Part shown: positions 21,781 to 34,588 of the stretch, one piece after another
How positions within the stretch are numbered: the first letter of the stretch is position 1
How the letters are laid out: every line of letters starts with the position of its first letter
DNA from: Escherichia coli
GTDB taxonomy: Bacteria; Pseudomonadota; Gammaproteobacteria; Enterobacterales; Enterobacteriaceae
Assembly: GCF_003018235.1 (NCBI RefSeq)
Contig: NZ_CP027437.1
Strand: one strand, 5' to 3'
Length of the DNA stretch: 64,000 nt
The notes under the pieces: generated by a model
What the model saw: the letters and a program-made list of their open reading frames with translations, nothing else
Database searches by the model: none
What the model was told of the DNA's origin: nothing
Made by a program: the position numbers and the translations under genes

Positions 21781-24444
21781 TCAGAACTTATATTTCAGGC
21801 CCACCATCACTGCGGTGTCATTGTAGCCATTATCACCCAGCTGCACGCCCACATTACCCCAGACGCTGGCCGCCGGATTCAGATTGCCATTTACGCCAAG
21901 TTTAATTTCCCCCAGATTACGCGCCCCGTCTTGTTCGACTTTCACACCGTTCATTGAGACAGCAAAATCTTTACTGTTATGGATCCAGTTCATTTCAACA
22001 AAAGGTTCAAAGTCGTCACCGTGCGGACCGCTGTTTTTCTCCTGAGTACGAATAAAGGAGCGGAAACCAAGTCGGGTCTGGATGTTGTTATTTGCGTCAT
22101 TCTCAATACGTGAGCCATTGGCTTCCGTGTGCGCATTATGATCGACGCCCATCCAGATAGCCTGTGCCTGTGGCTGGAAGATCCACGTATATTTCGCCGC
22201 TTCCAGACCAAAGGATTTATTCAGGGCAAAACCGTAACCCGCTTCCAGCGAGACGGTTGCACCTTTCGCGCTATAGGATTCATAGGCTAATTCATCTCCT
22301 TTCACCGAGTTTTTAAACCAGCTATATTGCGCCCAGGCGTCAATGTATGCGCCTTTTTTACTGATGTCATCGGCAAACCAGGTGGCATACAGCCCTGCGC
22401 TATAGCCTCTGACACTCCCTTTCGAACGATAATCCGACACGCTGGAATGAGTTGAGTTGTAGTCGCGGGCATAACCAGCCATCACTCCCAAACGCCAACT
22501 GTCACTGTCGGTAAAACCACCGGTTAACAGATCCGCCCCTAACTGCGAGACGTAGCGATGCGAGGTCGTTCTCAACTGTCCGTTGCTGTCACGCCAGGCA
22601 TTATGCCCGCCAATTTGACGTAGCCAAAGTCGGCTTGAACGCTCCTGTTCAGTTACAGGATCGATGTAGCGCGTTTCACCTGCACGATCGTTCAGACGCA
22701 TAACAAAAAGAGTGTTAGCGGCTGCCAGGTTGGCGACGTAACTTCCAGCTTCGGGGCGCAGGACGGGGGTAGGCGTTTCTGTTGATTCTGAATTTCCCTC
22801 TGAGCTGTTATCCTCCTCATTCACTGACTGATAACTTGTCAAATACCAGTTTTTGCCTTGTTGTTTTAGTTGATATTCGAAAGCTCCAGCTGCAATCCTT
22901 GCATCACCTTGTCTGAAGGCATCTGCTGGAGATTCATCGCCATTCACAGTTATGAGTTCGATCCCATTTAGCGTGGCCGCGCCGCTTCCTCCAGCATTTT
23001 TCACATAGACGGTAGTTGACCCCGAAGTATTACCCTCAACAATCAGTCTGTCCGTAGCCGATTTATCATCACCTAATACGGTGCGGATATTAAGCTGACC
23101 ATTATCACCGACATAATTACCTTTTACGGTTAACGTTTTTCCCTGGGTAAATGTTTGACCATCATCATACGAAAGATTGATAATACTGTCTGAATTAGTC
23201 AGATGGGTAACAACGGAGTCATCTTTCATATTCCAGATTGTGTTTTCTGAAAGCTTCAGTGTGGTTGTGCCGCTAACGAGTTTAGTCGCTCCATTTAGAG
23301 TAGAGTCGGACGAAATTATGTTTAAGCCACCTCCAGTATTATTAACCAGAATATTATTACCAGGCGTGATAATACTTCGATTAAGGATGCTTACATCCGT
23401 TGTAGTTTTGTTAACATCAATACTATCCAAAGCACTTGAAAGTTCGACACTTGATAGTGCTATTTTGGCTTGAGAATCGATATTTGATGCATCAATTGAT
23501 ATTCCTTTATCTTGTTCTGATACCGCGGTGACATTGGAAAAAAATAACTCTCCACCATTGTATATTTTTGCAATGGGGGCTTTAGTGCCTTTTGTTGTAA
23601 TAGAACTATTTTTTATATCAATGTTACCTTGTCGAATAGCAACTGTATAACTTCCATGCTCCCCGGTTTCAAGTGCCACATAATCTAAATTAATATATGC
23701 TTTTTCCCCATTAGCATAAGCACCATAGCTATTAGTGCCATTAGTTGTTATGGAACCACCATTCATTTTTAAATCAGCACGGCTAATAACTTCGTAACTG
23801 TTAGAATCACTAACTTCATCATCTACAGCATCGACACATGTTCGAGACTCTCCAGGACTTGAACATGCAAGAACACCTACTGCATTTTCCCCATAGGTAA
23901 CAATGTTCGTTTTATCTGTGGTTTCAAGACGGGTGTTATTTTCCACAATCCCAGAATCATTAACCTGACTTAAAAGTCCCGCTGAATATGCCCCCCTCGT
24001 CTCGACTGAATTATCACCATTCATAACGATGGTGCCACCAAATTCACTGACTACTGCGCTGGCTGTTATCCCTCCATTAACATCTTGGTTATTTCCTTTG
24101 TCAGATACGCTTCCAGAGGTCTTAATATCGCTATCGCTTATATATAATACTTTGTTATGACTATCAACAGAAATACCATAAGATCCATCACCACTAGTCA
24201 TCACACTGGCATTATTTATATATCCAGTTACACCGTCATCCACTTTCACAGCATGGCTTTCGTCTTTAGTGGTTAGATACTCTCCATTACTTATCGAATT
24301 ATTATCTTTGATTTCAATCGGAGATTCTTCATCAGTTATATAGGAAAGTATACTATAATCATCCAACAATTGTGTTGCATATGCATTACCCACCGCCAGA
24401 GCAATAAGTCCCAAACTAAACCCGGGGAGTTTTTTCAGTTTCAT
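21781..24444 (-). CDS. Autotransporter (full length; sits where I recall K-12 having the ycgH pseudogene)
   Basis: 887-aa ORF with signal peptide MKLKKLPGFSLGLIALAVGNAYA, Ser/Thr/Asn/Gly-rich passenger, C-terminal beta-barrel ending ...VGLKYKF. Confidence 0.8.
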   Translation of the reverse strand: MKLKKLPGFSLGLIALAVGNAYATQLLDDYSILSYITDEESPIEIKDNNSISNGEYLTTKDESHAVKVDDGVTGYINNASVMTSGDGSYGISVDSHNKVLYISDSDIKTSGSVSDKGNNQDVNGGITASAVVSEFGGTIVMNGDNSVETRGAYSAGLLSQVNDSGIVENNTRLETTDKTNIVTYGENAVGVLACSSPGESRTCVDAVDDEVSDSNSYEVISRADLKMNGGSITTNGTNSYGAYANGEKAYINLDYVALETGEHGSYTVAIRQGNIDIKNSSITTKGTKAPIAKIYNGGELFFSNVTAVSEQDKGISIDASNIDSQAKIALSSVELSSALDSIDVNKTTTDVSILNRSIITPGNNILVNNTGGGLNIISSDSTLNGATKLVSGTTTLKLSENTIWNMKDDSVVTHLTNSDSIINLSYDDGQTFTQGKTLTVKGNYVGDNGQLNIRTVLGDDKSATDRLIVEGNTSGSTTVYVKNAGGSGAATLNGIELITVNGDESPADAFRQGDARIAAGAFEYQLKQQGKNWYLTSYQSVNEEDNSSEGNSESTETPTPVLRPEAGSYVANLAAANTLFVMRLNDRAGETRYIDPVTEQERSSRLWLRQIGGHNAWRDSNGQLRTTSHRYVSQLGADLLTGGFTDSDSWRLGVMAGYARDYNSTHSSVSDYRSKGSVRGYSAGLYATWFADDISKKGAYIDAWAQYSWFKNSVKGDELAYESYSAKGATVSLEAGYGFALNKSFGLEAAKYTWIFQPQAQAIWMGVDHNAHTEANGSRIENDANNNIQTRLGFRSFIRTQEKNSGPHGDDFEPFVEMNWIHNSKDFAVSMNGVKVEQDGARNLGEIKLGVNGNLNPAASVWGNVGVQLGDNGYNDTAVMVGLKYKF

Positions 24445-24843
24445 AGATTAACCATCCATTCATTGGATTAACAAACATTCCTGGTCAAATAACCTATGAG
24501 TTCAGATTACCAAAACAGAGGGTAAAGACAAAAACAAAAGCACAAAAAATTTAAATAGATAAACAGCGACAATATATAAATGATAAATAAGGCGGCATTA
24601 TCATTTTTCACCTTATTTTCATGACATTGATCACTTTGGGGTGACGATTTTGTTTAACAAATAACTCTTCGACATCAAAATTATTAATAGTTGCCATAGA
24701 AATTATTTCGGTGATATATAAAACCAACTGTGATAACACCAGGGTTGACAACTATTTGCGCAAAAATTCCTTTCCTTCAATGATCCAGGCGTTCACTGTC
24801 AGCACCCCATTCAGCCGCATACTGACAGTGAGAAACTGAAAGA

Positions 24844-25062
24844 TTATTGCTGATCCCTGTGGCTGACGAGTCTTTCCCTTAATCGATTAATCAGATTGAT
24901 CGCCAGCCAAACAAGGGCATTAAGCAAATTTATCGTCACAAGCACTTCTCCCAGCCCGGTACTGGGTTTTGCAATAAGGATGACCAGGAGAGTGATCAGC
25001 ATAAATGCAATGGAAAAGATGATATAGAGAGTGAAATAATCCAGATTATTACTATTTTTCAT
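24844..25062 (-). CDS. ymgF: Small inner-membrane protein YmgF
   Basis: ORF 24844..25098; ATG at 25062 gives MKNSNNLDYFTLYIIFSIAFMLITLLV... Confidence 0.8.
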   Translation of the reverse strand: MKNSNNLDYFTLYIIFSIAFMLITLLVILIAKPSTGLGEVLVTINLLNALVWLAINLINRLRERLVSHRDQQ

Positions 25063-25193
25063 GCTACTAATGGCAATCCTGTCAAAACTTTCAAACAATT
25101 ATAGCAAACAAAATAATGAACAATAGTAACAAGAGGCAACGAGCTAATTAGCTGTCTATAATTACACCGCACCATGGCCTTGCTGATCAATTT

Positions 25194-26717
25194 TCACTCA
25201 ACCACAACCTTCACCTTCGGTTTAGAAAGGATAATTTTGACCAGGTCGATATATGTAACAGGTTTATAGAAATAATAACCCTGCTGAAATGTGATATTAT
25301 TTTTATTCAGATAGTCAAGTTGTTCTTTCGTTTCGACACCTTCAGCGACGATACTGATCGAAAGTTTACGCGCCAGATCCAATACACAATCCAGAATTCG
25401 GGTTGATTCTCGGTCTGCGTTGACGCGGCCAACGAAACTGTGATCAATTTTGATATAATCAATATGCAGGTCATGCAGATAAGAAAGCCCTGAGTAGCCA
25501 GTACCGAAATCATCCAGCGCGATGACAAAACCATTTTCATGCAGAATGTTCAACCGCTGAACCAGACTTTCATCAACATTTAATGGCTCACGCTCGGTAA
25601 CTTCCAGAACGAGGTTTAAATCGCGGCGGGTAAAACTGTCACGGTAATTTAAGCACTCGTCGACAAACGTCGGCGAAATAATATGCGAGGCGCTAAAATT
25701 AATTCCAATATGAAAACCTTCCGGCAGTTTACTCGAGATAGCGTTCATCTGTCTGGCAACCTGATTCATCAGGCTTTGCGTAAGCGGAACGATTAATCCG
25801 GATTTTTCAGCAAGTGGAATAAATGCCGCGGGTGATATATATCCACCGTGAGGTTGTTTCCAGCGGGCTAACACCTCAACTCCCCGCAATGTCCCTTCCC
25901 GACCATTTACCACAGGTTGGTAAAAAGGGACGATCTCACCATTATTTATAGCCCGTCGCAAGATCTCTTCAGGCGTTGCGCTTTTATTGAAATACCTATC
26001 AAGCAGGAAGGCAGCGGCGCAGGCGATTAACAGAATAAATATCAAAATCCCAAAGCCTTTATCGATTAGTCTGTAGAAGCTAAAGAGTGGCGGCGGGTTA
26101 AAGATAATAGTGAAATGATATTTTGTGGAGTGAACCTTCTCGGTATAGGGATAATGTCCATTAAGCGTCATCACATCACCCGTTGGTCCAATAATGTCAT
26201 CCGCCACGCGTAATACATACCTTACCCCTTTCAAGGGTACATTAAGCGCCCCGCGAATATGCTGATCACTTATCGTAACCAAAATGCGCGTATCTGCAAA
26301 TTGGCTCTGATAGAGCAGGATAGGTAATCTATTAACGGTGTCGATTGCCGGAGCCAACAGTAAATTACTGTCCGGGAAAACAGGAATACGAGACAGCAGG
26401 ACCCGATTCCCCGGTAAGGATGTACACCAGACCGTTCCCTGTTTGAGAATGATGATTGTGCGCAGGTGAGGTTTCAGAGCTGCTTCAGTGCCAAGCTGAT
26501 ATTGCTCCTCGAGGTCGCATTCCTTCCCGGCAATGTTAACCGCCGTTTGAGTCGCCTGTGACGCTTCTTCAAGTATATGATTGATATTGTTGGCGGCATA
26601 TCTTGCTCCCGCCAGGTACTCTGCTTTTGCGGAATACCAGAGCTGGATGTTCAAAATAGCGACACCGGTTATAAACAAGCATATCGCAATGAGGATGGGT
26701 ATGAGTGTATTGCGCAT
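25194..26717 (-). CDS. pdeG: c-di-GMP phosphodiesterase PdeG (CSS-motif sensor plus EAL domain)
   Basis: 507-aa ORF with N-terminal TM/CSS domain and C-terminal EAL domain; synteny with ycgG. Confidence 0.9.
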   Translation of the reverse strand: MRNTLIPILIAICLFITGVAILNIQLWYSAKAEYLAGARYAANNINHILEEASQATQTAVNIAGKECDLEEQYQLGTEAALKPHLRTIIILKQGTVWCTSLPGNRVLLSRIPVFPDSNLLLAPAIDTVNRLPILLYQSQFADTRILVTISDQHIRGALNVPLKGVRYVLRVADDIIGPTGDVMTLNGHYPYTEKVHSTKYHFTIIFNPPPLFSFYRLIDKGFGILIFILLIACAAAFLLDRYFNKSATPEEILRRAINNGEIVPFYQPVVNGREGTLRGVEVLARWKQPHGGYISPAAFIPLAEKSGLIVPLTQSLMNQVARQMNAISSKLPEGFHIGINFSASHIISPTFVDECLNYRDSFTRRDLNLVLEVTEREPLNVDESLVQRLNILHENGFVIALDDFGTGYSGLSYLHDLHIDYIKIDHSFVGRVNADRESTRILDCVLDLARKLSISIVAEGVETKEQLDYLNKNNITFQQGYYFYKPVTYIDLVKIILSKPKVKVVVE

Positions 26718-27052
26718 TCACTTGTCCCGGCCAAAGGGTTTAATACATAAAAATGACATTCATTCGCTCGCGCTGGCGTCTACAGAGAGCATGGTAGAGA
26801 GCATCACAAATATCCACGCCGAAGATAAAATTTTCTCCATCTTCATCTAACCTATTAATTATTAAGCATAATGTAGGCAGAATTAAACAAATTAGGCGGG
26901 ATATCAGGCGTCAAGAATGGAAAACGAGCGCTCTCCATTCTTGTTGGCTCCCTGATATTGCGGATATATTAAGAAAGCATAACGCCTGAAATACTCACTT
27001 TGCACCAGCATGGTGATACATCTGATCTTTATTCTAAAGCCTTCCACAAGTT

Positions 27053-27301
27053 TTAAGAGAGCACGGATTCCCTGTCATTAATAATGATATCCGTTAGTGT
27101 AGTCTTATGCATTTCAATGTACTGCAAGATTTGCAGATAGAGATCAGAAAGAATCACACTGGTTTCATCTTTTAAACGCAAGCGTAAAGCCTGATCAATA
27201 ATATGACTATCAACATATCCATGCGTCATGAACACCTCCCTCTCGAGATTTTTAAACAACGCACATTGAAAAATAAATCTCTCTGGGATTGAATTATTCA
27301 T
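27053..27301 (-). CDS. ymgC: Protein YmgC
   Basis: ORF 27053..27328; ATG at 27301 gives MNNSIPERFIFQCALFKN... Confidence 0.85.
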   Translation of the reverse strand: MNNSIPERFIFQCALFKNLEREVFMTHGYVDSHIIDQALRLRLKDETSVILSDLYLQILQYIEMHKTTLTDIIINDRESVLS

Positions 27302-27413
27302 GTCAGCCTCGTAGGAATAGTGACCCAATAAAATTATGCTGTGTATAGTCTAAAGCGACAGACAAAAATAAGATGACTGAGTTTTCTATAAACTTATACT
27401 CAATAATTGAAAG

Positions 27414-27680
27414 TTACATATCATCCGCTGTGTATCGCAACACGATTTCCAGTGTTTTTCTAATCACATCAGCTTTGAGAATATCACTTGTTGTTTCCAG
27501 AGAGTGTATCAGACTTAAGATAATATTTTTATTATTAACATTATCGCCTGAAAGCATTAAATTGGTCACAGCCTGCCCTAACACAGCTGACTCTTCTTCT
27601 AACAAATTACCTGAACTACGAAAGTAGCTTGATAACGCTTTATCAGTTATTGCATTATGAATTGTAGTATCTTCAAGCAT
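27414..27680 (-). CDS. ariR: Biofilm/acid-resistance regulator AriR (YmgB)
   Basis: 88-aa ORF; part of the ycgZ-ymgA-ariR-ymgC operon. Confidence 0.9.
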
Positions 27681-27708
27681 AGTAACCTCTCATCTTACTT
27701 ATGAAATT

Positions 27709-27981
27709 TTAATGTATTCTGTTTATTTTCTTACCATTGAACATACTTTTATTGTCAGCTATCGCTGTTCTTCTGTTTGGCTCTCCTGTATCACTGTTGC
27801 TAAAATCACGAATTATGCTGTCAATTAAATCTCGTCGGAAAGCATTTTCCTCAGCCGATTTCATTACGAGTAATTGCTTAATAAGAGTCTGTAACGAAAA
27901 ATTTATCTTCATGCGCAGTATATGGAGCACCGCCTGGCCAGTAATTTCATATTTTGTACTTTCATTATCAGATGTCTTCAT
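27709..27981 (-). CDS. ymgA: RcsB connector protein YmgA
   Basis: 90-aa ORF; operon synteny. Confidence 0.88.
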   Translation of the reverse strand: MKTSDNESTKYEITGQAVLHILRMKINFSLQTLIKQLLVMKSAEENAFRRDLIDSIIRDFSNSDTGEPNRRTAIADNKSMFNGKKINRIH

Positions 27982-28023
27982 AACGACTTCATAGCTAACC
28001 TGTTAAATAATCAGGCTGTTGCA

Positions 28024-28260
28024 TTATTCAAAAAGCAACCCAATTAGTGCATTATAATGTTTCTGTTCCTCTTCCCCTGTCGCTTGTTCCAGTCGGCATA
28101 GAAGTTTGGCACAAAGCGACTTTCGACTCAGATTACGTCCATCTTTCAAAATCTCAGTCACAATTTCCCCGAGAGTTTCCTGCTGAGTAGGCAAGTTAGC
28201 TTTTGCAAAGTAACGAGTGATTGCTCCCGCAGAATCTAAAGTCACTGAATTTTGATGCAT
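28024..28260 (-). CDS. ycgZ: Protein YcgZ
   Basis: 78-aa ORF; first gene of the ycgZ-ymgA-ariR-ymgC operon, divergent from bluF. Confidence 0.88.
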   Translation of the reverse strand: MHQNSVTLDSAGAITRYFAKANLPTQQETLGEIVTEILKDGRNLSRKSLCAKLLCRLEQATGEEEQKHYNALIGLLFE

Positions 28261-28573
28261 GCTACGCCTCTGTTAAAAATGTTAATCAATGTTAAGTGAG
28301 GTAACAATAGCAAACTTGTACGAAATATGTGTACAGAATGATAAATTAATTTTTTGCATTTAGTGCTAATACATATAAAACAACAGGTTATGATAAAAAA
28401 TATTGCATCATTTAAATGACAACCTATACAAGAATTTTCGCCAACTCATCTTCAACTTTTTCCATTTTTTATCAATGTAAAGAAACAGTTATGTTTTGGT
28501 ATTAAAAGAAAGACACCGGAAGATATGTCTGTTACCGTCTTACTCTCGCCTCTCCCATTACCCTGGACAGTTA

Positions 28574-29785
28574 ATGCTTACCACCCTTATTTATCGTAGC
28601 CATATACGTGACGACGAACCTGTCAAAAAAATCGAAGAAATGGTTTCGATAGCAAATCGCAGGAACATGCAGTCTGACGTAACAGGGATCTTACTGTTTA
28701 ATGGTTCTCATTTTTTCCAGCTTCTGGAAGGTCCGGAAGAACAGGTTAAAATGATATATCGGGCTATATGCCAGGATCCACGGCACTATAATATTGTTGA
28801 GCTGCTGTGCGATTACGCGCCTGCTCGCCGTTTTGGCAAAGCGGGAATGGAATTATTTGATTTGCGCCTGCACGAGCGAGATGACGTTTTACAGGCCGTA
28901 TTCGACAAAGGCACATCAAAATTTCAGCTAACTTATGATGACAGAGCGCTACAATTTTTTCGTACTTTTGTCCTTGCAACCGAACAAGCAACCTATTTCG
29001 AGATCCCTGCCGAAGACTCCTGGCTTTTTATCGCTGACGGATCTGATAAAGAACTTGATTCCTGTACCCTTTCACCAACTATAAACGACCACTTTGCCTT
29101 TCATCCTATTGTCGATCCCTTATCGCGGCGGATAATCGCTTTTGAAGCCATTGTGCAAAAAAATGAAGACAGCCCGTCAGCTATAGCGGTTGGGCAGCGT
29201 AAAGAAGGGGAAATCTATACAGCGGATCTCAAAAGTAAGGCGCTTGCATTCGCGATGGCACACGCACTTGACCTCGGTGATAAAATGATTTCAATCAATC
29301 TATTACCTATGACCCTGGTTAACGAACCTGACGCAGTCTCTTTTTTACTTGATGAAATAAAGGCCAATGCTCTGGTGCCTGAACAAATCATCGTTGAATT
29401 TACTGAAAGTGAAGTCATATCTCGGTTTGATGAGTTTGCAGAAGCGATTAAATCGCTTAAGGCTGCCGGTATCAGTGTAGCAATTGATCATTTTGGCGCA
29501 GGTTTTGCCGGTTTGTTACTCCTGTCACGCTTCCAGCCTGACAGAATTAAAATCAGTCAGGAATTGATTACCAATGTTCATAAAAGCGGGCCACGGCAGG
29601 CAATTATTCAAGCGATCATAAAATGCTGTACATCACTTGAAATTCAAGTCAGTGCTATGGGCGTGGCAACACCAGAAGAGTGGATGTGGCTTGAATCCGC
29701 AGGAATTGAGATGTTTCAGGGAGATCTGTTTGCTAAAGCTAAATTGAATGGTATCCCTTCCATAGCGTGGCCAGAGAAAAAATAA
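28574..29785 (+). CDS. bluF: Blue-light sensor BluF (BLUF plus degenerate EAL)
   Basis: ORF 28496..29785 (TTG); ATG at 28574 gives MLTTLIYRSHIRDDEPVKKIEEMV... matching recalled BluF (403 aa). Confidence 0.9.
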   Translation: MLTTLIYRSHIRDDEPVKKIEEMVSIANRRNMQSDVTGILLFNGSHFFQLLEGPEEQVKMIYRAICQDPRHYNIVELLCDYAPARRFGKAGMELFDLRLHERDDVLQAVFDKGTSKFQLTYDDRALQFFRTFVLATEQATYFEIPAEDSWLFIADGSDKELDSCTLSPTINDHFAFHPIVDPLSRRIIAFEAIVQKNEDSPSAIAVGQRKEGEIYTADLKSKALAFAMAHALDLGDKMISINLLPMTLVNEPDAVSFLLDEIKANALVPEQIIVEFTESEVISRFDEFAEAIKSLKAAGISVAIDHFGAGFAGLLLLSRFQPDRIKISQELITNVHKSGPRQAIIQAIIKCCTSLEIQVSAMGVATPEEWMWLESAGIEMFQGDLFAKAKLNGIPSIAWPEKK

Positions 29786-29989
29786 TTTTCAGCACATTCT
29801 TTCACATGATTTCAGTAAATCATCGTGAAAATGAATACGTTATGTTTAAATTTAATCCACATTAAAAATAATGTTTCATCCAATTTAGCTGAAATCTTAT
29901 TTATACTTTGTACAATTTTAGCGTATATTGTACAAAGTATTATTGGGTCGTGTACAGGCGACGGAGATTTGTGACCGCAAGGAGGAATT

Positions 29990-30721
29990 GTGGCTTATTA
30001 CAGCATTGGTGATGTTGCTGAACGTTGCGGGATTAATCCTGTCACTCTCCGGGCCTGGCAACGCCGCTACGGTTTGTTAAAACCACAGCGCAGTGAAGGC
30101 GGACACCGACTCTTTGATGAAGAAGACATACAACGCATCGAAGAGATCAAGCGTTGGATAAGTAATGGCGTCCCTGTAGGCAAAGTTAAAGCATTACTGG
30201 AAACCACCAGCCAGGATACGGAAGATGACTGGAGCCGCCTGCAAGAAGAGATGATGTCAATTCTTCGTATGGCTAATCCTGCCAAACTACGCGCGAGAAT
30301 TATTTCACTGGGTCGAGAGTACCCAGTAGATCAATTGATTAATCATGTTTACCTTCCTGTTCGCCAGCGTCTCGTGCTTGATCACAACACCTCCCGCATT
30401 ATGAGCAGTATGTTTGACGGCGCATTAATTGAATACGCAGCAGCCTCGCTTTTCGAAATGCGCCGTAAGCCCGGTAAAGAAGCCATTCTGATGGCGTGGA
30501 ATGTTGAAGAGAGAGCACGATTGTGGCTGGAAGCATGGCGTTTATCATTGTCAGGATGGCACATTTCTGTTCTTGCTGATCCCATTGAAGCGCCGCGCCC
30601 GGAACTGTTCCCAACGCAAACATTGATTGTCTGGACAGGCATGGCACCAACGAGAAGGCAAAACGAACTTTTACAACACTGGGGTGAGCAAGGTTATAAA
30701 GTCATCTTTCATGCCCCCTAA
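29990..30721 (+). CDS. bluR: MerR-family repressor BluR (YcgE)
   Basis: 243-aa ORF with N-terminal MerR HTH ([26 protein letters not shown]). Confidence 0.9.
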
Positions 30722-30941
30722 TTTCACCTTTATCCCGCCCCTTAGACAGAATCTTATAATCTGAACCCACAATAGCGTTTGTACCGGAGCTGGTCCGTTG
30801 CAAAATGCTCACCGGGAGAATTCAGGTAATCCCCCTTTCACACTTTGTACATATCACAGCCAAAGGACAGACCAGATTGAAGTGGTAAAACCGATCGTGC
30901 ACACTACGCAGTCTCACAACTAACAAGAGGTTATTATCCTG

Positions 30942-31346
30942 ATGGATCAGGTTGTTGTTTTTCAAAAGATGTTTGAGCAAGTGAGAAAAGAGCAAAACTT
31001 CTCCTGGTTTTATTCAGAATTAAAACATCACCGTATTGCACATTACATTTATTATCTGGCTACGGATAACATCAGAATTATTACTCACGATGACACGGTT
31101 TTGTTATTAAGAGGAACCAGGAACCTGTTAAAAGTTAGTACGACCAAGAACCCTGCTAAAATAAAAGAGGCCGCATTGCTTCATATTTGCGGAAAATCAA
31201 CATTTCGGGAATACTGTTCAACACTGGCAGACGCGGGCGTTTTCCGGTGGGTTACTGATGTTAATCATAACAAACGCAGTTACTACGCCATTGATAATAC
31301 GCTTTTATATATTGAAGATGTAGAAAATAATAAACCATTAATCTAG
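30942..31346 (+). CDS. ycgX: Protein YcgX
   Basis: 134-aa ORF; synteny. Confidence 0.85.
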   Translation: MDQVVVFQKMFEQVRKEQNFSWFYSELKHHRIAHYIYYLATDNIRIITHDDTVLLLRGTRNLLKVSTTKNPAKIKEAALLHICGKSTFREYCSTLADAGVFRWVTDVNHNKRSYYAIDNTLLYIEDVENNKPLI

Positions 31347-31553
31347 CTAAAGTTGGATGCTTAAAAAATGCTTCATAATTCAGTAAGGCATTAGCATAAT
31401 GGAAATAAAAGTGCAGAGACTATTCATATGGATGAGTAATACTATCTTTTTATTGCCACCCATAAATAATCACCAGATCAATACTATCAACTTGATATTT
31501 GAAATGTGATCACTTGACTTTTGATACGTTATTTTATAGCGGTTAACATATTT

Positions 31554-31606
31554 ATAAAAAACAACGGGCGTGCCATACGCCCGTTTCAATACTTAACGCA
31601 CATGTG
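31554..31606. repeat. Orphan copy of the icd 3'-flanking terminator region
   Basis: About 90% identical over ~53 bp to 32414..32466; includes hairpin aacgggcg-tgccata-cgcccgtt. Confidence 0.7.
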
Positions 31607-32043
31607 TTTTGGTTTAGTCATCATCCGGTTATATGTATTTTAGCCAGGAATGGGTTAAACCATTCCTATATAACTAAAAAATTGAAACCTTATTCTCATG
31701 TCATGCTTATATTCGTCATTATCGTTATATAAAAAGGCCAACCATAATGTTTAGCAAATTGGCACAAAGTAGTATAAAGGCTATGTTTTAATTACAGGAT
31801 GTTCAGTCATTTGAATGTATAACATTTTAGCTAAACAAATCTAAAACGAAGTGAATAATTTATTGTTTTCACTAAATCTCATTTTGTTTAACATCCATTG
31901 AGATTCCTTGCTTTAAATTTTGTTTTATATAAGCAATCGTTTTAATTAATTTATTTTTTTGAAGGGTAATATACTCATATGCAATATAAAGAAATGAACA
32001 TCCAAATGAACTATATTAAATACCGTGGGATAAGACATAACAA

Positions 32044-32367
32044 ATGAAGTGGGTAGTAATTGACACGGTAATTCAACCTACATGCGGCATATCTTTTTCA
32101 GCCATATGGGGTGATATGAAAATGATCATCTGGTATCAATCTACTATATTTCTCCCTCCTGGAAGTATATTTACACCGGTTAAGCCTGGTATTATCCTTA
32201 AGGATAAAGAATACCCTATTACTATTTATAACATCACACCATTCAACAAGAATTTATGGAGTTTACTCAAAAGCAGTCAAGAGTGTCCTCCAGGAGAAAG
32301 CGAAATAACAAATAAATGTTTGCATAAGAGTTGTATTATAAAAATATGCCCATATGGGCTCAAATAA
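32044..32367 (+). CDS. iraM: Anti-adaptor protein IraM (stabilises RpoS)
   Basis: 107-aa [26 protein letters not shown]... matching recalled IraM; long AT-rich upstream region. Confidence 0.75.
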
Positions 32368-32413
32368 TGGGTTTTATATAAATATGCTCGATATGCTATT
32401 AATAATATCCACA

Positions 32414-32466
32414 TAAATAAAACAACGGGCGTGTTATACGCCCGTTTCAATATTTAACACATGTAG
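32414..32466 (-). terminator. icd intrinsic terminator
   Basis: Hairpin aacgggcg-tgttata-cgcccgtt followed on the minus strand by a T-run immediately after the icd stop. Confidence 0.7.
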
Positions 32467-32469
32467 AGA

Positions 32470-33720
32470 TTACATGTTCTTGATGATCGCATCACCAAAC
32501 TCGCTGCATTTCAGCAGTTTAGCGCCTTCCATCAGACGTTCGAAGTCATAGGTTACAGTCTTGGCGTTGATTGCGCCTTCCATACCTTTAACAATCAGGT
32601 CTGCGGCTTCAGTCCAGCCCATATGGCGCAGCATCATCTCAGCGGAGAGAATAATAGAGCCTGGGTTTACTTTGTCCTGACCGGCATATTTCGGCGCAGT
32701 ACCGTGGGTGGCTTCAAACAGGGCGCATTCGTCACCGATGTTTGCGCCTGGGGCGATACCGATACCGCCGACCTGTGCAGCCAGAGCGTCAGAAATGTAG
32801 TCACCGTTCAGGTTCATACAGGCGATAACATCATATTCAGCCGGACGCAGCAGGATCTGTTGCAGGAATGCATCAGCAATCACATCTTTAATGACGATCT
32901 CTTTGCCGGTATTCGGGTTTTTAACTTTCATCCACGGGCCGCCGTCGATCAGTTCACCGCCAAACTCTTCACGCGCCAGCTGGTAGCCCCAGTCTTTAAA
33001 CGCGCCTTCGGTGAACTTCATGATGTTGCCTTTGTGCACCAGGGTCACAGAGTCACGATCGTTAGCAATTGCGTATTCGATCGCTGCACGAACCAGACGT
33101 TTGGTGCCTTCTTCCGAACACGGCTTAATACCGATACCGCAATGTTCCGGGAAGCGAATTTTCTTCACGCCCATCTCTTCACGCAGGAATTTAATCACTT
33201 TCTCGGCGTCGGCAGAGTCAGCTTTCCATTCGATACCCGCATAAATGTCTTCCGAGTTTTCACGGAAGATAACCATATCGGTCAGTTCAGGGTGTTTAAC
33301 CGGGCTTGGAGTGCCCTGATAGTAACGTACCGGACGCAGGCAGATGTAGAGATCCAGTTCCTGACGCAGGGCAACGTTCAGAGAGCGAATACCGCCACCT
33401 ACTGGAGTGGTCAGCGGGCCTTTAATGGCAACGCGATATTCACGAATCAGATCAAGGGTTTCAGCAGGCAGCCAGACATCCTGACCATAAACCTGTGTGG
33501 ATTTTTCACCGGTGTAAATTTCCATCCAGGAGATTTTACGCTCGCCTTTATAGGCTTTCTCGACTGCAGCGTCGACCACTTTCAGCATGGCTGGGGTTAC
33601 ATCTACACCGATTCCATCACCTTCAATGTAAGGGATAATCGGATTTTCAGGAACGTTGAGTTTGCCGTTTTGCAGGGTGATCTTCTTGCCTTGTGCCGGA
33701 ACAACTACTTTACTTTCCAT
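32470..33720 (-). CDS. icd: NADP-dependent isocitrate dehydrogenase
   Basis: 416-aa [41 protein letters not shown]... matching recalled Icd; intact 3' end. Confidence 0.97.
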
Positions 33721-33891
33721 TCACCTCTCCTTCGAGCGCTACTGGTTTGCTCGTCTGCCACCACGTTGCATATGCGTTTGCGTCCTGCGATACGGATGCT
33801 TTAGAGCAATTTTTTGTTAATGATTTGTAATTGGCTTGTCAATACTACCCTATTGTTTGCCGTCATGAAAGATGCGCGTTATTAGGCTATA

Positions 33892-33942
33892 ATGCGGCAA
33901 TTCATAATCTCTGAAAATACCATGCAAAAAACTTCTTTTAGA
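33892..33942 (+). pseudogene. rluE: Displaced native 5' fragment of rluE (first 17 codons, MRQFIISENTMQKTSFR)
   Basis: Matches recalled RluE N-terminus, then diverges after the 11-bp repeat and stops at 34036..34038; TATAAT just upstream. Confidence 0.6.
33932..33942. repeat. Left copy of the 11-bp direct repeat CTTCTTTTAGA flanking the rluE insertion
   Basis: Identical 11-mer at 35429..35439, in the same reading frame (S-F-R) in both copies. Confidence 0.7.
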
Positions 33943-34180
33943 CCAAAGACAGTATTTTCCCGACATTCAAATAAAGTATTAAATATCAATTATTTACACC
34001 AGATTTTAAGCAATAAAAAAACCACCAGAGATAACTAACAGGGTGCTATTTGGTCAAAATTTGACATTACTCGATTCAGCGACTATCTCACTTTGAGCAC
34101 TATTGGGAAAATTATCAAAAGTCATGGTTGAAGCGACAAGCAACGAGTAAATTATGGCATCCCCCCTTTTTGAGGTTCAC

Positions 34181-34267
34181 ATGAAACGCTTTGCACTGAT
34201 AGCTGTGAAACTCGTTGCCTTTACTGGTTCTGCATCTGCTGCAACCGAAGAAATCAACTTCAAGTAA
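34181..34267 (+). CDS. 28-aa micro-ORF with signal-peptide-like sequence (MKRFALIAVKLVAFTGSASA/ATEEINFK)
   Basis: ATG preceded by gagg; hydrophobic core plus A-x-A cleavage motif; absent from the ORF track (below length cutoff). Confidence 0.35.
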   Translation: MKRFALIAVKLVAFTGSASAATEEINFK

Positions 34268-34300
34268 CAGAAACACTATATAACAATGGAGTGTTGACAA

Positions 34301-34588
34301 ATGGATACTACCGAAGAACGCAATGGAACATATTTCTACAGAGGACACCCGAACCTGTCCAAAATAGAACTACTCAACGTCATATTCCTTGAAGAATTCT
34401 GTAAGGAATTGGGGATTGATTCGGTATCAGGTGCAGCAATCTTATCTGGTCAACCGTGGCTGGGTACAAGAGCGAAGCCGCAAGGGGCAACCCTGGGAAC
34501 AAGTGTTGTCTCAAAGTATGCGCGTATACTGATGAGAGATGCACGCATGCCTTTTGGTATTTGTGGGTGTAAGGATGCAGAAATCTAA
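34301..34588 (+). CDS. Hypothetical protein (95 aa)
   Basis: ORF in the rluE-inserted cassette; no recognisable domain. Confidence 0.4.
   Translation: MDTTEERNGTYFYRGHPNLSKIELLNVIFLEEFCKELGIDSVSGAAILSGQPWLGTRAKPQGATLGTSVVSKYARILMRDARMPFGICGCKDAEI

Follow-up and report, generated by a model that had tools for sequence, protein, structure and literature searches.

An Escherichia coli chromosomal bluR-bluF and ycgZ-ymgA-ariR-ymgC locus with intact reading frames and a neighbouring pdeG

Results

Gene content and alignment to K-12

The window analysed here is a 64,000-nucleotide stretch of Escherichia coli DNA. At its positions 26718-30721, the minus strand encodes ymgC, ariR, ymgA and ycgZ, and the plus strand bluF and bluR, in the gene order of K-12 MG1655 but inverted. 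A preliminary description had assigned a complete BluR/BluF and PdeG module to this range; this held for bluR, bluF and the four operon genes, whereas pdeG lies just outside, the range beginning one base past the pdeG start codon. The seven genes are:

25194..26717, minus strand, pdeG (ycgG), CSS-motif and EAL membrane protein, putative c-di-GMP phosphodiesterase, 507 aa
27053..27301, minus strand, ymgC, last gene of the operon, 82 aa, protein identical to K-12 b1167
27414..27680, minus strand, ariR (ymgB), biofilm and acid-resistance regulator, 88 aa
27709..27981, minus strand, ymgA, small Rcs connector protein, 90 aa
28024..28260, minus strand, ycgZ, first gene of the BluR-repressed operon, 78 aa
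28574..29785, plus strand, bluF (ycgF), BLUF photoreceptor domain and degenerate EAL domain, BluR anti-repressor, 403 aa
29990..30721, plus strand, bluR (ycgE), MerR-family repressor and MlrA paralogue, GTG start as in K-12, 243 aa

For comparison with K-12 (b1162-b1168, NC_000913.3 1213328-1218851), positions 24445-32469 of the window were taken into a global alignment. All seven genes aligned without gaps at 95.6-99.5% nucleotide identity, and start codons, stop positions and lengths were the same as in K-12. The alignment, which had been proposed as a check for frameshifts, revealed neither frameshifts nor truncations or altered starts in the seven genes, and no internal stops were present, so that the earlier statement of an intact cluster with full-length frames was borne out. 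Altogether, the seven proteins differ from their K-12 counterparts at 27 amino acids. The only indel within 26718-30721 is non-coding: four nucleotides (GCTC on the plus strand, at about 26947) in the ymgC-pdeG spacer, which are present in the window and missing from K-12. Likewise, the window and K-12 share relative strands, domain architectures, ycgZ promoter hexamers and BluR operator. Further differences were observed beyond the locus, where the window, unlike K-12, is devoid of the e14 prophage at icd, has an intact ycgH and contains a full-length gene in the place where K-12 keeps only the ycgI remnant.

BluF and BluR

The bluF gene was 98.7% identical to K-12 b1163 at the nucleotide level and its product 98.5% identical. 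Pfam placed the BLUF domain (PF04940), a blue-light sensor with FAD, at residues 2-92 (E 2.8e-24) and the EAL domain at 173-388. The six amino acid differences from K-12 are all located at residue 139 or later and thus outside the BLUF domain, residues 1-138 being identical. The EAL domain is degenerate, with DHFGAG and AMGVAT in place of the DDFGTG and AEGVET seen in PdeG, exactly as in K-12 BluF, for which degeneracy of catalytic and c-di-GMP-binding residues and lack of action on c-di-GMP have been described (PMC3509220). A 429-aa bluF frame starting from TTG 28496 was considered to be a mechanical extension of the open reading frame; it was rejected on the basis of the K-12 annotation, in which the start corresponds to ATG 28574, and of the mapped bluF transcript start, which lies 30 nt upstream of this ATG (PMC3509220).

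The bluR gene follows bluF in the same orientation after 204 bp and was 99.5% identical to K-12 b1162, with 241 of the 243 residues conserved (T152A and S201A being the exceptions). Its product contains the Pfam domains MerR_1 (4-71, MerR-type HTH), MlrA_helical (81-154) and MlrA_C (162-238). In addition to the last two, a full-length match to the MlrA equivalog model reveals the likeness to MlrA, but since its score of 268 bits remained below the cut-off of 417, BluR is regarded as a paralogue of MlrA and not as MlrA itself.

The ycgZ-ymgA-ariR-ymgC operon

The four small genes are co-directional and separated, in the order ycgZ, ymgA, ariR, ymgC, by spacers of 42, 28 and 112 bp. In K-12, they are transcribed as one polycistronic mRNA according to Northern blots (PMC3509220). 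Compared with K-12, ycgZ (b1164) showed 98.3% nucleotide identity and 2 amino acid differences, ymgA (b1165) 95.6% with 7 of 90 residues differing, and ariR (b1166) 96.3% with a single difference (A17S). The ymgC gene has four nucleotide differences, all synonymous, one of which turns the stop codon TAG into TAA. In the list of open reading frames the ymgC frame extends to TTG 27328; the K-12 start is ATG 27301.

YcgZ passed the cut-off of the NCBIfam equivalog YcgZ_fam (123.8 bits versus 80) and also matched Pfam YmgB, the family that AriR matched at 6.8e-26. No curated family model was matched by YmgA or YmgC in the Pfam and NCBIfam scans, so these two were identified by K-12 orthology alone. 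Antisense open reading frames of 84-85 aa are found opposite ariR and ymgA, in DNA of 34-36% GC where long spurious frames are expected; they were without annotation in any record compared.

The divergent control region

The following elements were located between ycgZ and bluF:

28261..28573, no strand assigned, control region with ycgZ promoter, BluR operator, MarA box and bluF promoter
28335-28330 and 28312-28304, minus strand, ycgZ promoter, -35 element TGTACA and extended -10 element TGCTATTGT, identical to K-12
28317-28335, minus strand, BluR operator TGTACACATATTTCGTACA, unique in the window and identical to K-12
28352-28366, MarA box GCACTAAATGCAAAA, one mismatch to the consensus (PMC6900184)

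The operator combines a direct repeat of GTACA with an overlapping TGTAC/GTACA palindrome and covers the ycgZ -35 element and spacer. The sequence corresponds to the GTACA...GTACA / TGTAC...GTACA site mapped by footprinting, and the promoter elements fit the mutational data from the same study (PMC3509220). That study also agrees with where the operator is placed with respect to the -10 element and to the start of transcription, 36 nt ahead of ycgZ. The surrounding positions 28301-28358 are identical to K-12. In the marbox, the single difference from K-12 is a T to A exchange in the W tract, by which the match to the consensus is kept; its centre is found about 62-63 bp upstream of the inferred ycgZ transcript start (PMC6900184).

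Over its whole length the ycgZ-bluF region was 93.9% identical to K-12. The 19 substitutions among its 313 positions are mostly located on the bluF side, and two of them (28517-28518) in the presumed spacer of the bluF promoter. A consensus scan returned 22 promoter-like sites (20.8 expected) and 6 terminator-like sites (5.8 expected). It was uninformative, as both the real ycgZ promoter and the hairpin distal to ymgC were missed.

Occurrence in public sequences and expected conservation of function

All 4004 bases of 26718-30721 were 100.000% identical to an E. coli draft assembly (GCA_012810615.1, contig AATHQV010000030.1), and the same assembly was 100.000% identical over 24445-32469 as well, with the same gene calls and no difference in that range. 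RefSeq names bluF, bluR, pdeG, ycgZ, ymgA, ariR and ymgC in loci that are 99.4% identical, and all seven protein sequences were already deposited under these names; exact copies of BluR (as 'repressor BluR'), YcgZ, YmgA (as YmgA), AriR and YmgC each occur on at least 1000 public contigs. As K-12 alignment, RefSeq annotation of near-identical loci, domain scans and exact protein look-ups all agree, the locus is identified as the known BluR/BluF cluster. It is ordinary and already known, in line with the earlier judgement of an established biofilm and acid-resistance control cluster without novelty.

Intact frames might still hide a locus that has decayed functionally, with amino acid or promoter substitutions silencing the switch as in some host-adapted lineages. 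The unit is indeed not universal: 5096 of 5426 complete E. coli genomes have the locus and about 330 gave no match, and classical O157:H7, Salmonella and Yersinia are among the lineages from which the whole unit is missing (PMC3509220). The 19 divergent positions of the control region and the 7 exchanged residues of YmgA would also suit such decay. However, no gene has a broken frame, K-12 has the same operator, -35 and -10 elements and BLUF domain, and the alleles are widespread. Moreover, synonymous codon changes outnumber amino acid changes relative to K-12 in bluF (10 versus 6), pdeG (29 versus 9) and ariR (9 versus 1), a pattern that points to continued purifying selection. We therefore regard silencing as extremely improbable. 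The locus is almost certainly the intact chromosomal E. coli bluR-bluF / ycgZ-ymgA-ariR-ymgC system with flanking pdeG, and should work as established for K-12.

pdeG and the hairpin in the ymgC-pdeG spacer

The pdeG gene showed 97.4% nucleotide identity to K-12 b1168 and 9 amino acid differences in its product, in which Pfam recognized the periplasmic CSS-motif domain (PF12792) at residues 31-217 and the cytoplasmic EAL domain at 251-486. The catalytic motifs of EAL domains, EVL, DDFGTG, KID, EGVE and QQG, are all canonical in PdeG, and none of the 9 differences falls inside them. [quoted passage not shown] The preliminary description had joined it to BluR/BluF in one module; PdeG is a neighbour and intact, but its grouping with the switch is supported by position alone.

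The spacer between ymgC and pdeG contains one further feature:

26903..26959, minus strand, long hairpin some 95 nt past the ymgC stop codon

This is probably the 3' hairpin of the operon transcript. RNA folding gave -29.4 kcal/mol (z -5.4) and a stem with an internal loop for the allele of the window, compared with -44.5 kcal/mol (z -10.9) and a perfect 25-bp stem for K-12; the weaker fold results from the 4-nt insertion together with 31 substitutions in this spacer. Two allele classes exist in E. coli genomes, that of the window being present in about a third of hairpin carriers. The hairpin was without annotation in the records examined. A dispersed repeat (REP or MITE) was ruled out, as each genome has one chromosomal locus; the median count of '2 places' in a genome probably reflects a palindrome that matches on both strands. 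When 21000-34500 was scanned against Rfam (E<=1), no structured RNA was detected, and just two sub-threshold chance matches were returned (an archaeal snoRNA model and tpke11, the latter with 22 bits where the gathering score is 43).

If transcription from the ycgZ promoter read through this hairpin, PdeG would belong to the same regulatory unit and light and cold would also lower c-di-GMP. The location of pdeG, on the operon strand 335 bp downstream of ymgC, would allow this, as would a hairpin that has no canonical U tract and that, in the allele of the window, is much weaker than in K-12. Against this, pdeG goes unmentioned in the Northern blot analysis of the K-12 ycgZ-ymgABC mRNA, and the unit that other enterobacteria conserve does not include ymgC, ycgG or ymgF (PMC3509220); nor was a link between PdeG and BluR found in the literature consulted on the locus. 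Co-regulation of pdeG thus seems unlikely. We consider it a still more doubtful idea that the hairpin is a functional RNA element setting the amount of BluR-controlled transcription that enters pdeG, in which case the two alleles could vary the coupling of light and cold to c-di-GMP turnover between strains.

Discussion

For the intact BluR/BluF switch, we infer every step of the mechanism in this strain from the literature. The MerR-like repressor BluR would sit on the GTACA-repeat operator, overlapping the ycgZ -35 element and spacer. Blue light, mainly at low temperature, would activate BluF via its BLUF domain, and BluF would then bind BluR directly through the degenerate, non-catalytic EAL domain and pull it off the DNA; light-dependent binding and release are expected here from the 98.5% identity to the tested K-12 protein (PMC3509220). 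The derepressed operon would supply the small proteins YcgZ, YmgA and AriR to act on the RcsC/RcsB phosphorelay, with colanic acid and acid resistance going up and CsgD and curli going down as the likely output. MarA may add σ70-dependent activation from its box about 62 bp upstream of the ycgZ transcript start. The neighbouring CSS-EAL protein PdeG, whose catalytic motifs are intact, would probably stand beside this BluR/BluF pathway.

A paralogous pairing of a MerR-like regulator with an EAL protein operates in E. coli in the control of csgD by MlrA, PdeR (YciR) and DgcM (YdaM). GTACA-containing sites are recognized by BluR and MlrA alike, and each regulator is contacted by an EAL-domain protein; however, MlrA is an activator with an active phosphodiesterase, PdeR, as its partner, whereas BluR acts as a repressor and is released by an EAL protein that senses light and is catalytically dead (PMC3509220).

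The strain keeps a complete switch from blue light and cold to Rcs-dependent biofilm control, which has little import beyond annotation and implies no new biology. For studies of surface and biofilm phenotypes in this lineage it is useful context, as the autotransporter genes next to the switch, which have been lost from K-12, are also intact here.

Identity and integrity of the locus

Judged by its six-frame ORF list and megablast, the window is E. coli chromosome. Megablast against 5426 complete E. coli genomes matched window 26000-31500 in 5096 of them, with 99.4% identity for the top match and 95-99% for the majority; annotations under these matches were bluF, bluR, pdeG, ycgX, ymgA and their neighbours. 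Positions 1208000-1228000 of K-12 MG1655 (NC_000913.3) and the best-match region of strain NY1601 served as reference gene models. Compared with K-12, the locus is inverted in the window. The K-12 genes were aligned to the window by BLASTN and subsequently compared codon by codon.

Genes of the locus, with nucleotide identity and amino acid differences relative to K-12
25194-26717, minus strand, pdeG, 507 aa, 97.4%, 9 differences
27053-27301, minus strand, ymgC, 82 aa, 98.4%, 0 differences
27414-27680, minus strand, ariR, 88 aa, 96.3%, 1 difference
27709-27981, minus strand, ymgA, 90 aa, 95.6%, 7 differences
28024-28260, minus strand, ycgZ, 78 aa, 98.3%, 2 differences
28574-29785, plus strand, bluF, 403 aa, 98.7%, 6 differences
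29990-30721, plus strand, bluR, 243 aa, 99.5%, 2 differences

All seven genes aligned without gaps and at exact K-12 length; start codons (including the GTG of bluR) and stop positions were as in K-12, and the codon comparison revealed no internal stop in any of them. Global MAFFT alignment of window 24445-32469 with K-12 showed one indel only within 26718-30721, 4 nt at about 26947 in the non-coding ymgC-pdeG spacer. Because the genes are gapless and full length and the sole indel is non-coding, no frameshift relative to K-12 was found by BLASTN, codon comparison or MAFFT, and the intact, full-length reading frames claimed in the preliminary description were borne out. The intactness of PdeG likewise held, but not its placement within 26718-30721: this range starts one base past the pdeG start codon (26717), and the gene therefore lies outside the range, directly adjoining it. 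A 429-aa ORF from TTG 28496 is a mechanical extension of bluF, which in the K-12 annotation starts at ATG 28574; the TTG start was rejected because the mapped bluF transcript start lies just 30 nt upstream of this ATG (PMC3509220).

The exact sequences of all seven proteins and of the neighbouring YcgH are already public under the same names. Among contigs fetched for encoding the exact YcgH, AATHQV010000030.1 (GCA_012810615.1) was 100.000% identical to the 4004-base range, and a second assembly 99.975%. Altogether, the observation is confirmed and its interpretation supported: the locus is an already known cluster, as had been stated, and there is nothing new at it.

Regulatory DNA between ycgZ and bluF

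The published BluR footprint consists of a GTACA...GTACA direct repeat overlapping a TGTAC...GTACA palindrome; within the ycgZ promoter it spans the spacer together with the -35 element. Transcript starts were mapped 36 nt (ycgZ), 30 nt (bluF) and 54 nt (bluR) ahead of the respective coding starts (Tschowri et al. 2012; PMC3509220). A MarA box with the consensus GCAHWWWWTGYYAAA was described 62 bp upstream of the transcript start (Kettles et al. 2019; PMC6900184). The following elements were located in the window by sequence matching.

28317-28335, minus strand, BluR operator TGTACACATATTTCGTACA, matched to the published footprint, single occurrence in the window
ycgZ -35 element, TGTACA
28312-28304, extended -10 element of ycgZ, TGCTATTGT
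28352-28366, MarA box, GCACTAAATGCAAAA

The segment 28301-28358 is 100% K-12 sequence; the closest difference affects a single base, 28300, which separates neither element but falls past the -10 element, before the transcript start. The sole departure of the MarA box from K-12 is a T-to-A change that falls within the W tract and thus leaves the consensus match unchanged. The other 17 differences in the 313-bp ycgZ-bluF spacer are on the bluF side. They include positions 28517-28518, where the window has CG and K-12 AA; these two bases fall in what is presumed to be the spacer of the bluF promoter, some 26-27 nt upstream of where the bluF transcript was mapped to start. The CG allele is common to the window and NY1601.

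Hairpin downstream of ymgC

No other part of the locus diverges as far from K-12 as the ymgC-pdeG spacer (26718-27052; 89.6% identity, MAFFT), which contains the following feature.

26903-26959, minus strand (operon strand), long RNA hairpin some 95 nt past the ymgC stop codon

In K-12 the stem comprises 25 bp and the hairpin reaches -44.5 kcal/mol (z -10.9); the window form, which carries the 4-nt insertion as well as an internal loop, reaches -29.4 kcal/mol (z -5.4). Changes in the apical stem keep pairing (G-C to G.U twice, U.G to C-G once). Two allele classes occur among E. coli genomes: in 3227 the hairpin is at least 95% identical to that of K-12, and in 1701 (window-like) the identity is 80-90%. 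A dispersed repeat was ruled out, as the hairpin is found at a single locus, and the database records examined carry no annotation of it. The simplest reading is a hairpin at the 3' end of the operon transcript.

Protein domains and motifs

Pfam assigned BLUF (2-92) and EAL (173-388) domains to BluF, MerR_1, MlrA_helical and MlrA_C to BluR, and CSS-motif (31-217) and EAL (251-486) domains to PdeG; AriR and YcgZ fell into the YmgB family, and the Pfam scan gave no match for YmgA and YmgC. In NCBIfam, YcgZ scored above its equivalog cut-off, and BluR reached 268 bits with the MlrA model, under the cut-off of 417, as expected for a paralogue of MlrA. When the window and K-12 proteins were aligned, degenerate motifs were seen in BluF (DHFGAG, AMGVAT) and canonical ones in PdeG (DDFGTG, AEGVET), in both cases unchanged from K-12. 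All six BluF substitutions are at residue 139 or later, which leaves the BLUF photosensor domain without any difference from K-12.

Divergence, base composition and flanking genes

Relative to K-12, 12 nucleotide differences cause 7 amino acid changes in YmgA, and 10 cause 1 in the adjacent paralogue AriR. In YmgL (area 31399-32367) 8 differences, none of them synonymous, yield 6 changes; in IraM, 8 of 107 residues are changed. This uneven divergence suggests that some small proteins are under relaxed or diversifying selection, or that the alleles are recombinant. GC content is 34-44% throughout the locus versus about 51% in flanking housekeeping genes; from 23000 to 32500 (5' end of ycgH, ymgF, pdeG and ymgC through iraM) most 500-nt windows have 29-46%, and icd and other flanks about 51%. 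The low-GC block fits an H-NS-type, horizontally assembled region.

21781-24444, minus strand, ycgH, intact 887-aa autotransporter with Pertactin, autochaperone and beta-barrel domains
17044-20565, minus strand, 1173-aa ORF, called mechanically with GTG as start codon
32044-32367, iraM
32470-33720, minus strand, icd, 416 aa

Unlike the intact window copy, ycgH is a pseudogene in K-12 (15-nt deletion, plus 1 nt lost at gene position 2589); the annotation of NY1601, the closest complete genome, gives it as frameshifted. The exact YcgH protein is recorded on 21 public contigs; a separate look-up by gene position gave 35 blocks, and 24 contigs were read from it. The last 345 nt of the 1173-aa ORF correspond, at 94.8% identity, to the K-12 ycgI pseudogene, the only remnant of this gene kept in K-12; PGAP annotates relatives as YpjA/EhaD-like adhesin autotransporters. 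Two indels, lying somewhere in 17000-24444, separate the window from a pair of near-identical public assemblies, in which the gene at 17044-20565 is called at 1120-1122 aa, which may reflect a different start codon rather than a real length difference. The e14 cryptic prophage, which interrupts the icd-iraM junction in K-12, is absent from this junction in the window, where icd directly adjoins iraM.

Proposed regulatory role

According to the literature, a conserved bluR-bluF-ycgZ-ymgAB unit is supplemented specifically in E. coli by ymgC, ycgG (pdeG) and ymgF, and PdeG is a likely phosphodiesterase of unknown function (PMC3509220). As ycgG is outside the conserved unit and described as a likely phosphodiesterase, calling PdeG a member of the module is a positional statement.

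By analogy with the published system, BluR would repress the ycgZ promoter, and MarA would provide additional sigma-70-dependent activation (PMC3509220, PMC6900184). Under blue light, mainly at low temperature, activated BluF would contact BluR by protein-protein interaction and free the operator. YcgZ, YmgA and AriR would then act on the RcsC/RcsB phosphorelay (PMC3509220, PMC6900184), which would enhance colanic acid production and acid resistance and lower CsgD and curli.
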